From positions 14,389 to 78,388 of the forward strand of contig CAYJJI010000003.1 in NCBI GenBank assembly GCA_964370475.1: a stretch of DNA of 64,000 nucleotides, given 5' to 3'. Of the stretch, positions 27,001-36,000 are shown one piece after another; positions within the stretch are counted from its first letter, which is position 1, and each line of letters opens with the position of its first letter. A program made the position numbers. Origin of the DNA: an uncultured Muribaculaceae bacterium. Lineage in GTDB: Bacteria > Bacillota_I > Bacilli_A > RF39 > UBA660.

Positions 27001-30000
27001 TTGGATATATATCTAAATATAAATTTAAGTCATTAATAGCAAAATCATATGCATATATTTTCATTAGTAATGTCTCTTTTTCATTTTTAGGTGTTAATTT
27101 TAAGTAATTCATGTTTTTGTAAGTATCATAAATATTACTAAACATAGTTCCTCTTAATAATCCTTCTAAAGGAGTATATAAATCTCTGTTATTAGCTATT
27201 CCAAATACTCCCGATTCTAATTCATTAAATAACATAATAAACCTCCTGTAGTATATTATGATTATTTATACTTTTGGACATAAAAAAATAGACATATATC
27301 TATTTATGTGTTTGTTTAGAAATATCTTTTCTACCTTCGTTTGGTTTTCACCATATATTATATTAACCTATCAATATACCTTATAGTTTCTTCTATATTT
27401 TTTCAATTGAGTCTTTTTCATATTACTATTATTAATCATGATGTATTTTAACAATGATATTTATATATTTTAATTTTTATAAATAAAAGAACTGATTACT
27501 CAGTTCTTAGTGCTATTACAGGGTCTTTTTTACTAGCCATTTTAGCAGGTATTAATCCTCCTATAATTGTAAGCGTTAAACTTACTAAAATTAATATTAT
27601 ACAATGTACCGGATTTAATACTGCTACATTTGCTAAATCAGTTAAATCTTCTATTATTATATTAGCTGGGAATGTTAATAACCAAGCTATGAATATTCCT
27701 AATATTCCTGAGAATAAACCGATAAGCGATGTTTCTGCATTAAACACTCTTGTTATATCTTTTTTTCTTGCTCCTAAACTTCTTAGGATACCAATTTCTT
27801 TAGTTCTTTCTAATACTGAAATATAAGTTATTATACCAATCATTATACTTGAAACTATTAGAGAAATTGCAGAAAAAGCTACTAGAACTATTGTTACTGC
27901 ATCCATGATACTTGATGATAATGAGCTTATCATCGCTCCCATGTCTGTGTATACAATCATTTCTTCTTGTTCTAAACCTTCATTATATTTATCTAATTGG
28001 TCTATAATATATTCTTTACTTTCAAAATCTTTAGGATAAATTTGAATCATATAAGGATATGTATCGTCTCCAAGATATGATAATATTTGATTTTTTTGTT
28101 CTTCTCCTGTTGGTGTATCTTCAAATTTTTCGCCACTTAAAACATTATAATCACTATTTTTTTGGGCTATAACTATATCTGACGTTTTACTTTCTTCAAT
28201 TACTTGATTAATTAATTCTTCATCATAAACTATTCCTGAAAAATTTTCGTATAACAGATTTCCTTCTTTAGATCTTGCTACACCTGTAATTGTAAGTGTT
28301 CTTGTGTCTTTGTCGTTATATTCATCTTCAAGTTCTTGTCTAGGAATAAAAATGTTTCCCATTTTTTGATATAAATCGTTATTGCTTATTACTTTAAATT
28401 CTTCACCTATTAAATCTTCAAATTTTAGTTCTGATTCATAATCTATTCCCATTATTTTTAATAGTTCTTGTGGGAATCCATTATTGTAATCTACAACTAA
28501 TAACAACTCATTTTCGTTTGATGGTATTTCACCACTTAGAATGTCTAGATTTTTTTCGATGTTAGCATTTGAACCATCTAAACTTGATGGTAAACTACTG
28601 AAATATTCTTTATCAGATAGAAAATTATATTTTCCATTCGCTTCATTCATTAAATTTAACGAAATTGCTCTAGTATATGATATACCATCTACTTTTTCAT
28701 TGTCTAGTGATTCAATATAATCAATGTATTCTTGAGTAAAAATATTTTGATGAGATATCATTTCATCGATATTTTCTTTTGGAACTATTATATCGTTATC
28801 TGGATATTGTTCTTGTTCTTCTAACTCTGTTTGTAATTCCATCATCGATTCTGGTGACATTTCTGTTGCTTGTTGGCTAATCATTATTGGAAGATTTGCT
28901 AAGGAGTTTCTTTCAAAGTTTTGAATTTGAATATCAAATCCATTTGAAAGAGCCAATATTAAAGCTATTCCTATGATACCTATTGATGATGCTAACGAAG
29001 TTATAAACGTTCGACCTTTTTTTGTCATTATATTATTAAATGATAATGATAAAGCAGTCATATAACTCATTTTTGTTTTTTTAATTTTAATTTTTGCATC
29101 TTTATCTTCTTTTGTATAGACTTTACTATCTTTAATTACTTCTCCATCTTTTAATTCAATTACTCTTGTTGAATATTCTTTGGCAATTTCCTCATTGTGA
29201 GTTACCATAATTACCAATTTATCTTTAGCTATAGTTTGAATTAATTGCATTATTTGTTCGCTAGTTTTTGTATCTAACGCTCCAGTTGGTTCATCTGCTA
29301 AGATAATATCAGGATCGTTTACTAAAGCTCTTGCTATTGCAACTCTTTGCATTTGTCCACCAGAGAGTTGCATTGGCTTTTTATGAGCATGGTCTTTTAG
29401 ACCTACTCTATCTAGCACTTCTAGAGCTTTTTTCCTTCTTTTAGCTTTAGAAATATTACTTAATGTCATAGACATTTCAATATTTCCTAAAACTGAAATG
29501 TGACCTATTAAGTTATAACTTTGAAAGATAAATCCTACACAATTATTACGATATGCATCCCAATCTTTGTCTTTGAATTCTTTTGTTGACAAGTTATTAA
29601 TTAATAAATCTCCACTATTATAACGGTCTAGTCCTCCTAATATATTTAGAAGTGTTGTTTTACCGCTTCCACTTGCTCCTAGTATAGATACAAATTCATT
29701 TTTACGAAATTTGATATCTACTCCTTTTAGAGCATGTTGGATAAAGTCACCTGTTTTGTAACTTTTTTTAATATTTTTTATTTCTAACATGTATTCTCCT
29801 TTTCTTTTTAATTATATCATAGATACATTTAAAATATTGTAGAAAAATAAAAAAACGAACTATCGTTCGTTAATTATACATTGTGGAATTTTTTATTGTC
29901 TTTAAGAGCTACCATTGTACCTATTGCAAGTACAGCTCCACCACCAAGGATTAAATAAGATGTAAATGCTCCTGTTTCAGGATTTTCTCCACCTAATTCA

Positions 30001-33000: not shown

Positions 33001-36000
33001 CAATGAGAAAATGGGTGAATATTTAAGTACTAGTGGTATTTATTTAGATAAATTAGATATTAATATTATTAAAACATTTAAGGGTTTTGACGAGGAAATT
33101 AAGTTAAGTTATTTAGATAATAAAGTATTTAATTATTTAGAAAAATTTAATATTGATAAGGTTAAATTAATAAGAGTGATTAATAGATTTATAAATTATC
33201 AATATGTTAATTATGATGAAGCTGTTAGTGAAGTTAGGGAATATGTTAATAAAATTAAAGAAGAGTATTTTTTAAGTATTAGAAATAATTATACTAGAGA
33301 ATATTTCTATTTGATTAAAGATTTAGTAAAGTTAAAGAAAAAAGTTAAAGATAAGAGATTGAAAGAGATTAATGGAGAAGTTATTACTAATATTAAGTTT
33401 CAATTGTTATATAAGTTATTAACTAATTCTATTAATGATAGTGATTTATTTAAGAAGAATGTTGTTGTTGAAAAGAAAGTTTCTAGACTAAATGATTTTA
33501 TATCAGATAAGATTAGTTTTAATGAATACTTAAAGAATGTTATTATTCCCCTATCTAACGGGAGTTTTAATATTGATGAATATTTATTAACTAATTCGTT
33601 TGTAAAACCATCTAATTATGATTATTTTAATGAATTAATGGGTGTTAGGAATAGAGTTGTTATTTTTAATAAGTATTTAAGGAAGTTGAAGAAGAATAAA
33701 AATATTGATGATTTGGAAGAAATATCTTCGAGGTTTATTAACGGAATTAGTAATGTAGATTTAATATATGATAAAAGATCTAATAAGATATTATTTAATA
33801 ATTTATTCAATTCTTATTTAGATGATGATTGTTTAAATTATTATAATGCTTATAAGTTAATTTCTAGTATCGTTGATTATAGTACTAAATTAGTTAATAG
33901 TTTATTTAAAAATTCTAGAGTTAGTGAAGTTTATTATAATGAATTATATTCTGAAATTAGTTCTTTAAATGTTATGGATTATATACCAGTAGTCAAGTTA
34001 TTTAATCTTAATGATTTGGAAGTGTTTTCTGGATTAGATTTTGATGATAGTGTTTTTGATAATACTTATTTTGAATATTTAATTAATAATAAAGCTTTTG
34101 TATTAATGTTTACTAAAGTTATAAATAATCCATCTAAAATAATATCTAGTAGTAATGATTTTTTAATGAATAACAATGTTTTATCTACTAATTTTATTGA
34201 ATGTTTAAATATAAATAAGAAATTAAATAGCAGTAATATTAGAGATGTATTAAAATGTTATGATGTTAATTACTATAGTACTCTTGATGATGAATATCTG
34301 AAATCTATATTTGATCGTAGTGTTAAGAATTATGAAAAATATGTTAGTAATATATATATTGATAATCTTATTACTATTAGAAGTTTAAATAATTATGAAA
34401 GTTTAATTAGAGTTGTTAATAGTAAGGAATATGATAGAACTACAGAACTAGAAATGATAGATGATGTTTTAGTTACATATTATGAAGTTATAGGTAAAGA
34501 TAAGTCGTATTTTAAAACAAAATTGGATGGTAATAATTTAATTGTTAGTGGCAATGTTAGTGATGATGTTTTAGATATTTTTAGCGATTATATACTTAGT
34601 AATTATAAATATATTAGTTATGTTACTACTGATAATTTATCTAATACTAATTATTTCACTAATTATTTAAATGATGATTTAGTAATTATTAAGAGTAAGA
34701 ATAAGGAATATTCTAATGTATATAAGGGTGAATTGTTAAATTTAGTTAATAGTTCATATACTTTTACTAACTCTATTGTTAATAAGAATATATTTAAGAG
34801 AATTAAATTAATTTTTAATGACGAAGATCTAGTTTGTTCTTTTGATGAATTATACTTTGATAATTATAATGTGATTATTAAAAGTGGGGATTGTATAAAT
34901 CAAAAAATCAACAATTATTTAAGCATATAAAGATGAATCAATGATTCATCTTTTTTTCGTATTCTATTAAATTATTTTTTAGTCTTTCGTCTTTATTATT
35001 TATTTCTATTGCTTTTTTTACTGAGTTGATAGCATTTTCATAATCGTTTAGAAAGTAATAATCGAGACTTAGAATATCATGTATTCTTTCATTATAACAA
35101 AAAGCTTCATTGATATATGTTTTAGGCTTATCTTTAATTTCTAGAGCTTTGTTTAACTCATCAATACTTTTTTGATATTGTTCTAAATCGTAGTAAAGGA
35201 ATCCTAGTTCTGTGTAAGCTTCCCTTAAATGTGGTGCTTCTATTATGGCTTCTTTATACCACATTATTGATTCCTCAAAGTATTTTAATCGTTTATATGA
35301 TCTTGCGATGAAACGCATTGATGCTGCTCTTTCATCCTTCCATGTTGATGTTCTTAGTTTTAGATGCTGGTGAAGTGTTTTAATTGCATCTTCATATCTT
35401 TCATAGTACATATATTCTCTACCTAAGTAGTGAACATTTCTATCATTATTAGGATCTTCTTTTACTGATAGTTCTAGTAAAGGTAGATAGGATGATCTTG
35501 ATTTATTTTGATCTTGATAATGTTTTAAAGTTATTTTGTCGGTTGTTTTTTTAATAAGATTATTTGGTACTATTTTTTTTAGAACTTCATGAACTGGATT
35601 TATCCATATATAATTTTTTCTTGAATGGATTTTTTCGATATAGAATGTTGTTCCTGGATTACCTAATTCATCAAAACTCCATATATAATTATAAGCTAGT
35701 CTATCAGTTTGTTCATCCCATAGATTTTCTATTTCTTTGCGCCATCCTTTATCAAATACTTCATCTAAATCTGTACATATACAAATATCATAATCATTAG
35801 GTACTAGATTTAAGGAATCATTTCTGGCTTTGTCAAATCTCCATGTCTCATATTTTTTTTGTGTAACTTTTACATTACTTTGTTTTAGTTTATTTACTGT
35901 ATTATCTGTAGAACCTGTATCTAGTACGAATATTTCGTCTGCTTCTTTCATGGAATCTATCCATCTATCAACAAATTTTTCTTCATTTTTAGCTATTGCA

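Follow-up and report, generated by a model that had tools for sequence, protein, structure and literature searches.

A class B sortase with a folded cytoplasmic domain and a divergently encoded substrate in uncultured gut Bacilli

The DNA described here, called the window throughout, is a stretch of 64,000 nucleotides from an uncultured bacterium (named Muribaculaceae in the public record and placed by GTDB in Bacilli_A, RF39, UBA660; assembly GCA_964370475.1, contig CAYJJI010000003.1, positions 14,389 to 78,388 of the forward strand). It carries a locus of three genes encoding a sortase, its candidate substrate and a large cytoplasmic protein. The substrate gene (29874-30485, minus strand) encodes a 203-aa protein with a signal peptide (aa 1-25), a ~140-aa Cys-containing domain and a C-terminal sorting signal. 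Divergent to it, the sortase gene (30673-32217, plus strand) encodes 514 aa and is followed by the gene for a 900-aa protein (32228-34930, plus strand). The G+C content is about 25% across the window and ranges from 19% to 34% among these three genes. An earlier reading of this DNA (the original prediction) had placed three open reading frames (ORFs) here; all were recovered, and the sortase motifs that it listed (IIYAHN, TLSTCYEY, RFVVHARL and GWLTVRNTNIDYPVVQ) are present.

The true start of the sortase gene is at 30673. The N-terminus MKKI is found family-wide and a conserved GTGGTGA ribosome-binding site (RBS) lies upstream of it (AAGTGGTGA, 30660-68), which argues for the 514-aa start over the public gene call P0001 (486 aa). 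The latter begins at Met29 and is too short, the stretch concerned being 30673-30756. The closest relative, P0002, carries the same short start call.

The C-terminal part of the protein (aa 336-514; 31678-32217) is a class B sortase (SrtB; MEROPS C60B) catalytic domain. The NCBIfam equivalog for this class, TIGR03064, matches residues 272-503 with 177.1 bits against a cutoff of 153.75, and the Pfam Sortase family matches residues 348-512 (2.3e-13). A family profile built from 35 members matched solved SrtB structures at 1e-43 to 1e-54, including those of Bacillus anthracis (1rz2/2oqw, 2e-54), Staphylococcus aureus (1qwz/1ng5), Clostridioides difficile (5gyj/4ux7), Listeria monocytogenes (5jcv) and Clostridium perfringens (5b23). 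These matches align the sortase domain end to end and are confined to profile positions 288-520; the first ~287 positions have no match in the PDB. His403, Cys499 and Arg505 are invariant in the 35 sequences and align with the catalytic residues of 1rz2 (YGH / TLSTC / RLVVHA). The SrtB identity that had been proposed from motifs is upheld by all of these searches, and the concern that the Cys, His and Arg positions might not align with true sortases has fallen away.

The layout of the enzyme departs from that of its class. A SrtB usually has ~215-255 aa and a short anchor, whereas this protein has 262 residues before its only transmembrane helix (aa 263-294; 31459-31554). Hydropathy analysis detected this single helix and no N-terminal signal peptide; the flanking net charge is +3 on the N-terminal side and -4 on the C-terminal side, as for an N-in/C-out orientation. 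Because a sortase catalytic domain must be extracellular and there is only one helix, residues 1-262 (30673-31458; hereafter the N-domain) are cytoplasmic. A cytoplasmic domain had been predicted, with a size of ~270 aa; its position stands and its length is corrected to ~262 aa. The enzyme is thus a type-II membrane protein with a complete SrtB domain outside and a folded domain of ~260 aa inside, joined through the helix and an acidic extracellular linker (aa 295-335; 31555-31677) of variable length and sequence. Within the membrane region, L272, K273, Y289 and N294 are near-invariant. As the protein scores above the TIGR03064 cutoff, has the catalytic triad and an N-terminal anchor, and is encoded near an NPxT[GN] substrate, the extension is a departure in layout and no failure of the class B definition.

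A fusion of this kind could be an artefact of assembly or annotation. In favour of this are one locus split by a frameshift (L019) and, otherwise, only the unusual length of the protein. The distribution of the family rules it out. The sortase is covered over 100% of its length, with 41-50% identity, by more than 120 clusters of proteins (505-584 aa) drawn from many studies, so this is no chance ORF. We retrieved 80 loci from reference genomes; in 77 of them a single ORF of 512-624 aa encodes the N-domain together with the catalytic domain, and the other three are the frameshift and two truncations at contig ends. A profile of the N-domain, run exhaustively with HMMER against 1.84 billion representative proteins, returned only 251 matches. 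Every full-length match is a protein of 507-565 aa with the domain at residues 1-266, the remainder look like fragments, and no separate full-length gene for the N-domain occurs among these representatives. The N-domain is thus confined to this lineage of sortases, as their cytoplasmic head. The family inherited the fusion from its ancestor, relatives do not encode the extension as a gene of its own, as the original prediction had allowed they might, and the probability of an artefact is negligible. A scan of one genome per species confirmed the N-domain in at least 129 genomes, all of uncultured gut Bacilli, under labels such as 'Bacilli', 'Tenericutes', 'Mycoplasma sp. CAG:472', 'Coprobacillus sp. 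CAG:605' and 'Candidatus Coprovivens'. Public records name these proteins simply 'class B sortase'.

The N-domain has no sequence relative in Pfam, NCBIfam, PHROGs or the PDB, even at permissive thresholds, and the leucine-rich repeat (LRR) models of Pfam and NCBIfam do not match it even at E<=10. It is a family-specific domain without a Pfam entry, and no earlier description of it was found in the open-access literature. An AlphaFold2 model built from a 19-sequence alignment (mean local confidence, pLDDT, 86.9; predicted template-modelling score, pTM, 0.78) begins with a beta-hairpin, after which come about eight short-strand/helix units at a spacing of 20-30 residues. LRR proteins are the top Foldseek matches of this model, at weak values (E ~3e-3; template-modelling score, TM, 0.24-0.31). 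In the spacing of its alternating strands and helices and in an I/L-x-x-Φ-x-Φ strand pattern, the modelled domain resembles LRR solenoids such as SKP2, NLRP, ribonuclease inhibitor and tropomodulin. In contrast to these, the N-domain lacks an LRR hidden Markov model match and a regular Asn/Cys ladder, and has two large conserved insertions outside the repeats. On the basis of the model, it appears to be a strand-helix solenoid that is weakly LRR-like, in keeping with the repeat-like character first noticed in its sequence.

Conservation within the N-domain is concentrated in four motifs, which contain its 32 invariant positions. The first is a loop, L28-x-N-T-N-x-I-x3-E-L-x-F-S-x2-Y45 (LxNTNVIxxxELxFSxxY); the second is R141-x-E-x2-F-T-S-x-F-M…Y-Y-K165 (SRxExxFTSxFM…YYK); the third is D181…F185…N189-x-Y191; and the fourth, Y254-S-x2-Y-x3-N262 (YSKDYxxxNY), forms a juxtamembrane helix. 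Residues 22-35 are the only part of the model with a pLDDT below 50 and are among the most conserved motifs. Together with the juxtamembrane helix (Y254, S255, Y258, N262), this loop looks in the model as would be expected of a putative binding site.

The divergent gene encodes the second constant part of the system. Its product has an AxA-type signal peptide (…PIMANA/ETRF, cleaved after ANA) and ends in a sorting signal (29877-29984, minus strand) that reads NPETG-AFTS-YLILGGGAVLAIGTMVAL-KDNKKFHNV. NPETG lies at 29970-29984 (aa 168-172), the hydrophobic helix has 18 residues and the tail KDNKKFHNV-COOH is encoded by 29877-29903. This matches what had been predicted for the 203-aa gene, namely a signal-peptide protein ending in NPETG, a hydrophobic stretch and a basic tail. 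The pairing is general: a divergent substrate gene lies upstream of the sortase in 67 of the 73 loci with enough upstream DNA. Most loci have one substrate of ~200 aa; nine have two or three in tandem. In addition, a metagenome scan that started from the sorting signal gave 11 loci, in which no orphan substrate was found; all ten with sufficient flanking DNA have a long sortase divergently adjacent.

Over 81 substrates, the signal has the consensus N (60/81)-P (73/81)-[QKE]-T-G, then [SA]-F-x-[PS]-Y and a transmembrane helix. It ends in a nine-residue cytoplasmic tail with the consensus K-K-x-N-K-[IFLM]-Y-x-[IVLM]-COOH. This pattern was partly imposed by the regular expression used for selection; Tyr at -3 (69/81) and Lys at -8 (69/81) were not, and in a looser scan every sortase-adjacent substrate ended in the same type of tail. 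The sorting signal, including the tail, is the best-conserved part of proteins whose bodies have a mean column identity of 18%. No Pfam, NCBIfam or PDB relative was found for the substrate body, with only weak Gram_pos_anchor matches; a cohesin-like or other fold was considered and has no sequence support.

Canonical systems, such as S. aureus SrtB/IsdC and those of B. anthracis, L. monocytogenes and C. difficile, share the catalytic family, the His-Cys-Arg triad, the NPxT[GN] signal and the adjacency of substrate gene and sortase gene. They differ at both cytoplasmic ends. The canonical enzymes have 214-254 aa with nothing before the anchor (solved SrtB chains span 183-254 aa), whereas here there are 262 extra folded residues, and canonical substrates have a generic basic tail, whereas here the tail carries a conserved motif. 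Searches of the open-access literature yielded no account of the tail motif or of a folded cytoplasmic domain on a SrtB, an absence that is no proof of novelty. Other specialised sortases with few substrates and an extended signal are represented in NCBIfam by NF040525 ('class B sortase, LPKTxAVK-specific') and NF058671 ('class D sortase, LPxTATN-specific'). The window sortase scores far below their cutoffs (63 against 200 bits and 19 against 140 bits, respectively), and the distinctive part of its substrate's signal lies on the cytoplasmic side. To our knowledge, none of the dedicated sortase/target pairs in NCBIfam has a cytoplasmic domain.

The substrates also bear on whether the enzyme could be a pilin polymerase, comparable to the streptococcal class B pilus sortases, with the upstream proteins as pilins. 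The profile does match the Streptococcus pyogenes Spy0129-type sortase (3psq), and the tandem substrates of some loci differ in size. Yet a pilin-like motif ([YFW]PK[NDHSQ]) occurs in only 2/81 substrates and an E-box in none of the 81, most loci offer a single ~200-aa substrate, and the best matches of the sortase are housekeeping NPxTG-type SrtBs. Such a role is accordingly quite improbable.

Several further features of the substrates and their surroundings were recorded. Many substrates carry one to several Cys-bracketed modules of ~30 residues (C-x5-KYY-x3-G-x-E-[VI]-x4-[YF]-x3-C) just before the sorting motif, for example at L037 5879-7036 and 7118-7813, L001 9052-9861 and L058 6896-7876; the window substrate has none. 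Unusually for surface proteins of Gram-positive bacteria, the substrates are Cys-rich: the mature part has a median of five Cys, in most cases an odd number. A DUF6568/PedC-like (thioredoxin-type) membrane protein is encoded ~4 kb from the substrate gene (25638-26198, minus strand) and keeps this synteny in L001. It might have a part in forming disulfides in the substrate, or its closeness might be a coincidence. Directly adjoining the substrate gene is a gene for a fused ABC ATPase and FtsX-type permease (MacB-like, 764 aa; 27496-29790, minus strand). Its position is kept in several relatives (L004, 76% identity; L083, 54%; L006, 43%), and a link to the sortase system is possible from this arrangement.

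Expression of the pair appears to be directed from the divergent intergenic region (30486-30672). A generic promoter scan was at background level and uninformative, and only elements conserved in an alignment with loci L004-L006 were used. Two such elements, TGTTATAAT before the substrate gene (30524-32, minus strand) and TGGTATTAT before the sortase gene (30635-43, plus strand), look like sigma-A extended -10 boxes and are candidate promoters. Terminator-like sites are more frequent than expected (4 found, 0.5 expected). One such hairpin lies 3' of the substrate gene (29854-29871, minus strand) and another ends the transcription unit of the sortase and 900-aa genes (34929-34953, plus strand), where it is shared with a convergent gene.

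The neighbouring genes give some indication of the host. An LCP-family ligase and a PBP5-type D,D-carboxypeptidase are encoded in the window beside housekeeping genes, so a wall appears to be available for anchoring. A comparative study predicts that srtA/B and a thin wall of peptidoglycan persist in RF39 and are missing from RFN20 and ML615J-28 (PMC10868615). Homologues of SpoVAD (2291-3259) and CotJB/CotJC (26278-27235) are also encoded, and the cotJ synteny recurs in L001. From these genes the host probably sporulates; they indicate that this reduced-genome lineage of Bacilli retains sporulation genes, in agreement with the mixed sporulation phenotypes predicted within RF39 (PMC10868615).

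It is conceivable from this context that the sortase acts in the outer forespore membrane, with its N-domain in the mother cell touching coat components, the 900-aa protein or the glycosyltransferase encoded downstream. Sporulation-specific sortases are known in Bacillus, and the spoVAD and cotJ homologues lie in the same window. However, the linkage to cotJ reflects no more than local synteny among housekeeping genes, a signal specific to sporulation was not found, and the resemblance of both conserved promoter elements to sigma-A boxes is itself a weak argument against sporulation-specific expression. We regard this role as very improbable.

The third gene of the locus is tightly linked to the sortase gene in the window. 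Its ATG follows the sortase stop codon after 10 nt (TAA-AGGAGATAAT-ATG) that include an AGGAGA RBS, and no terminator was found between the two genes in the terminator scan. They therefore form an operon. The 900-aa protein is mostly alpha-helical, has no transmembrane helix and no signal peptide, and has no match in Pfam, NCBIfam, PADLOC, PHROGs or the PDB. Searches of large databases returned only three relatives. An AlphaFold2 model based on three homologues had a pLDDT of 35 and was unusable, which makes a fold search on it meaningless. A GNAT/Fem-like C-terminus was considered for a 1389-aa homologue and found no support in any search. The gene has the lowest G+C content in the window (19.3%), with a GC skew of +0.48 in the 32-34 kb bin, and its product is rich in Asn (12.6%), Ile (10.6%), Lys (10.1%) and Tyr (7.6%). 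It lacks the ~345 N-terminal residues of its 1389-aa homologues, and its C-terminal third is diverged.

Of 75 loci, 28 encode a homologue of the 900-aa protein (900-1394 aa), beginning 7-83 nt after the sortase gene; all 28 belong to sortase clusters 8-13. These homologues are 24-58% identical over a core corresponding to residues ~15-640 of the window protein. The original prediction of a cytoplasmic neighbour without an export signal, 10 nt from the sortase gene, was accurate; the protein is not a general partner of the sortase. Among the orthologous sortases of relatives the N-terminal extension is universal, whereas this neighbour is found in one clade only. The universal unit thus consists of the substrate and the long sortase, to which one clade adds the 900-aa protein as an accessory. 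It follows that the function of the N-domain cannot depend on the 900-aa protein.

This distribution bears on the possibility that the N-domain is a scaffold. It would tether the sortase to some partner in the cytoplasm or at the membrane, for example the 900-1390-aa protein where that exists, or the division, secretion or wall-synthesis machinery, so that anchoring takes place at a defined site or beside the translocon, and would not touch the substrate. LRR-like folds are generic protein-binding modules, and the 900-aa gene, which is translationally close-coupled and co-operonic with the sortase gene and encodes a cytoplasmic protein, keeps its position across clusters 8-13. Sortases of Enterococcus faecalis reportedly require short cationic cytoplasmic tails for focal localisation, a finding attributed to Kline et al. 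in 2009. The closest architectural parallel is SrtE1 of Streptomyces coelicolor, in which a segment of 100-200 aa before the transmembrane helix is presumed to be cytoplasmic, is needed in vivo and has been proposed to bind other proteins; its authors describe such segments as absent from nearly all other sortases (PMC5148588). The enzyme described here shares the cytoplasmic segment. It differs in class (SrtB rather than class E), in substrate (NPxTG rather than LAxTG) and in phylum. The sequence of the SrtE1 extension is quite variable and includes patches of acidic and of basic residues, whereas the N-domain is a strongly conserved repeat domain with a confidently predicted fold. Two observations count against a scaffold: the large protein is absent from 47 of the 75 loci while the invariant residues of the N-domain are kept in all clades, which means that a universal partner would have to be encoded elsewhere; and the conserved tail of the substrate is left without an explanation. 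A scaffold is the main alternative to tail docking and is possible, if on the unlikely side.

We favour a different reading, to which we assign a probability of roughly 40%. Judging from these sequences, the two genes may encode a class B sortase and the substrate dedicated to it, in an RF39-like lineage of gut Bacilli that are walled and uncultured; the N-domain would serve as a docking module whose most likely ligand is the substrate tail, KKxNK-Φ-Y-x-Φ-COOH. The conserved tail provides a specific candidate ligand that goes beyond the original prediction, which had suggested control of activity or localisation from the cytoplasmic side; such control is itself an inference. By analogy with SrtB biochemistry, the substrate would be retained in the membrane by its C-terminal helix after Sec export. 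Cys499 would then cleave the T-G bond, and the acyl-enzyme would be resolved by a peptidoglycan precursor, fixing the substrate to the wall. The N-domain would bind the conserved nine-residue tail, so that the sortase would hold its cognate substrate from both membrane faces: the motif outside, the tail inside and, possibly, helix-helix contacts in between. This grip might provide specificity and efficient capture, or serve to hold the cleaved remnant peptide. In the clade that includes the window, the co-transcribed 900-1390-aa protein would probably be a second partner of the N-domain.

Docking of the tail is favoured since two features, the tail and the N-domain, set this family apart from ordinary SrtB systems, and these always co-occur. 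In addition, both lie at the inner face of the membrane, beside the invariant juxtamembrane helix, and the fold class is one that binds peptides and proteins. SrtE1 offers a precedent for the importance in vivo of the cytoplasmic N-terminal segment of a sortase (PMC5148588). The more specific claim, that the sortase recognises its substrate on both membrane sides, with the LRR-like domain binding the tail before cleavage or as a remnant peptide, is doubtful.

Several points weigh against tail docking. Across 42 sortase/substrate pairs, covariation between tail and N-domain was not in excess of that between tail and catalytic domain; because phylogeny dominates the signal, this comparison does not separate docking from scaffolding. 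The contact between N-domain and tail is a prediction, and so are enzyme activity and wall attachment. A tail of nine residues can reach only the membrane-proximal parts of the N-domain. Some tails read K-L-Q-K-I, so that Tyr at -3 is not absolute. The tail could also be read by another factor, or could simply be an efficient stop-transfer signal. Finally, TIM-barrel proteins match the N-domain model at E-values similar to those of LRR proteins, which makes the LRR assignment weak.

A ligand might instead be sensed. The N-domain would then respond to a metabolite, a nucleotide or accumulated remnant C-peptide and switch the enzyme through the transmembrane helix. The unusual conservation of that helix and of the juxtamembrane segments fits such a regulator, and there is a precedent: an intramembrane two-component system of Streptococcus gordonii is reported to sense the C-peptide remnant left by sortase (Hall et al. 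2019, cited in PMC11326707). That case shows that what is left of a sorting signal in the membrane and cytoplasm can be recognised by a specialised protein. In S. gordonii this task falls to a histidine kinase distinct from the sortase, with transcription as its target, whereas here the proposed reader lies within the sortase and has no signalling domain. The searches of Pfam, NCBIfam and the PDB revealed no known ligand-binding or signalling domain in the N-domain, and a single helix followed by the long, variable and flexible linker (aa 295-335) is a poor allosteric conduit. Regulation of this kind is therefore improbable.

In the textbook view, sortases are extracellular enzymes with a bare membrane anchor, and how they find their substrates and sites is only partly understood. 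The locus described here is real and conserved, and represents a so far undescribed architecture within a known type of enzyme-substrate system: an entire lineage of uncultured Bacilli, abundant in the human and animal gut, has a SrtB with a conserved, folded cytoplasmic domain and a substrate with a conserved tail. It provides a natural system in which to ask whether a sorting signal conveys information through its cytoplasmic end. It also yields an N-domain family without a Pfam entry, as well as a new type of extended sorting signal that is useful for annotating the surface proteins of RF39-like bacteria, and it corrects the truncated public start call of the sortase gene. If recognition on both membrane sides were true, no other sortase would have been shown before it to read a sorting signal at its cytoplasmic end, and the positively charged tail would be a specific address label beyond a generic stop-transfer element. 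If the tail is indeed recognised, orthogonal sortase/substrate pairs could be engineered.

The genes beyond the locus are less uniform among relatives. Convergent to the 900-aa gene is a gene for a GT2 glycosyltransferase with a tetratricopeptide repeat region (GT2-TPR; 34938-36071, minus strand; identified with Pfam), followed by one for a 367-aa bitopic membrane protein (36089-37192, minus strand) with a transmembrane helix at ~90-116 and an extracellular C-terminal part. In 33 of 59 loci, a homologue of GT2-TPR (51-62% identical) is encoded no more than 7 kb downstream. The 367-aa protein belongs to no known family according to Pfam, NCBIfam and PDB searches; its homologues (25-38% identity) occur in 23/59 loci. 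In clades other than clusters 8-13, one or both of these genes are directly convergent to the sortase, and in cluster 4 the GT2-TPR gene overlaps the sortase 3' end convergently. Twelve of the 59 loci have homologues of none of the three proteins (900-aa, GT2-TPR and 367-aa). An anti-phage defence role or phage origin of the locus was considered and dismissed, with no PADLOC or PHROGs matches.

Additional sortase or appendage genes adjoin the locus in some relatives. L051 (2688-3428) and L062 (407-1147) encode a conventional 246-aa SrtB-like sortase a few kb from the long sortase, 32% identical to it in the catalytic domain; in L051, it adjoins a two-component system and large surface proteins. 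In L037, a region past the GT2-TPR and 367-aa-like genes (12280-14348, minus strand) encodes a 345-aa protein similar to ParA/CpaE, together with two small ones whose N-termini resemble those of prepilins (MRE[SA]IGG…, TadE/pseudopilin-like), which suggests that a Tad-type pilus cluster adjoins the sortase locus there.

Further along the window, three ORFs (241, 292 and 302 aa; 37265-39778, minus strand) lie between the 367-aa gene and a gene for a UvrD-like helicase. Only the middle one (292 aa) has a match, to DUF2229 (CoA-enzyme-activase-associated); the 241-aa protein is strongly hydrophobic in its centre. At 46635-58930 (minus strand) there are about ten consecutive ORFs of 198-736 aa without a Pfam match at E<=1e-5, except for a weak S24-peptidase-like region in the 736-aa protein. 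This run is the part of the window with the highest G+C content (0.29-0.35) and is possibly an uncharacterised surface or appendage cluster.

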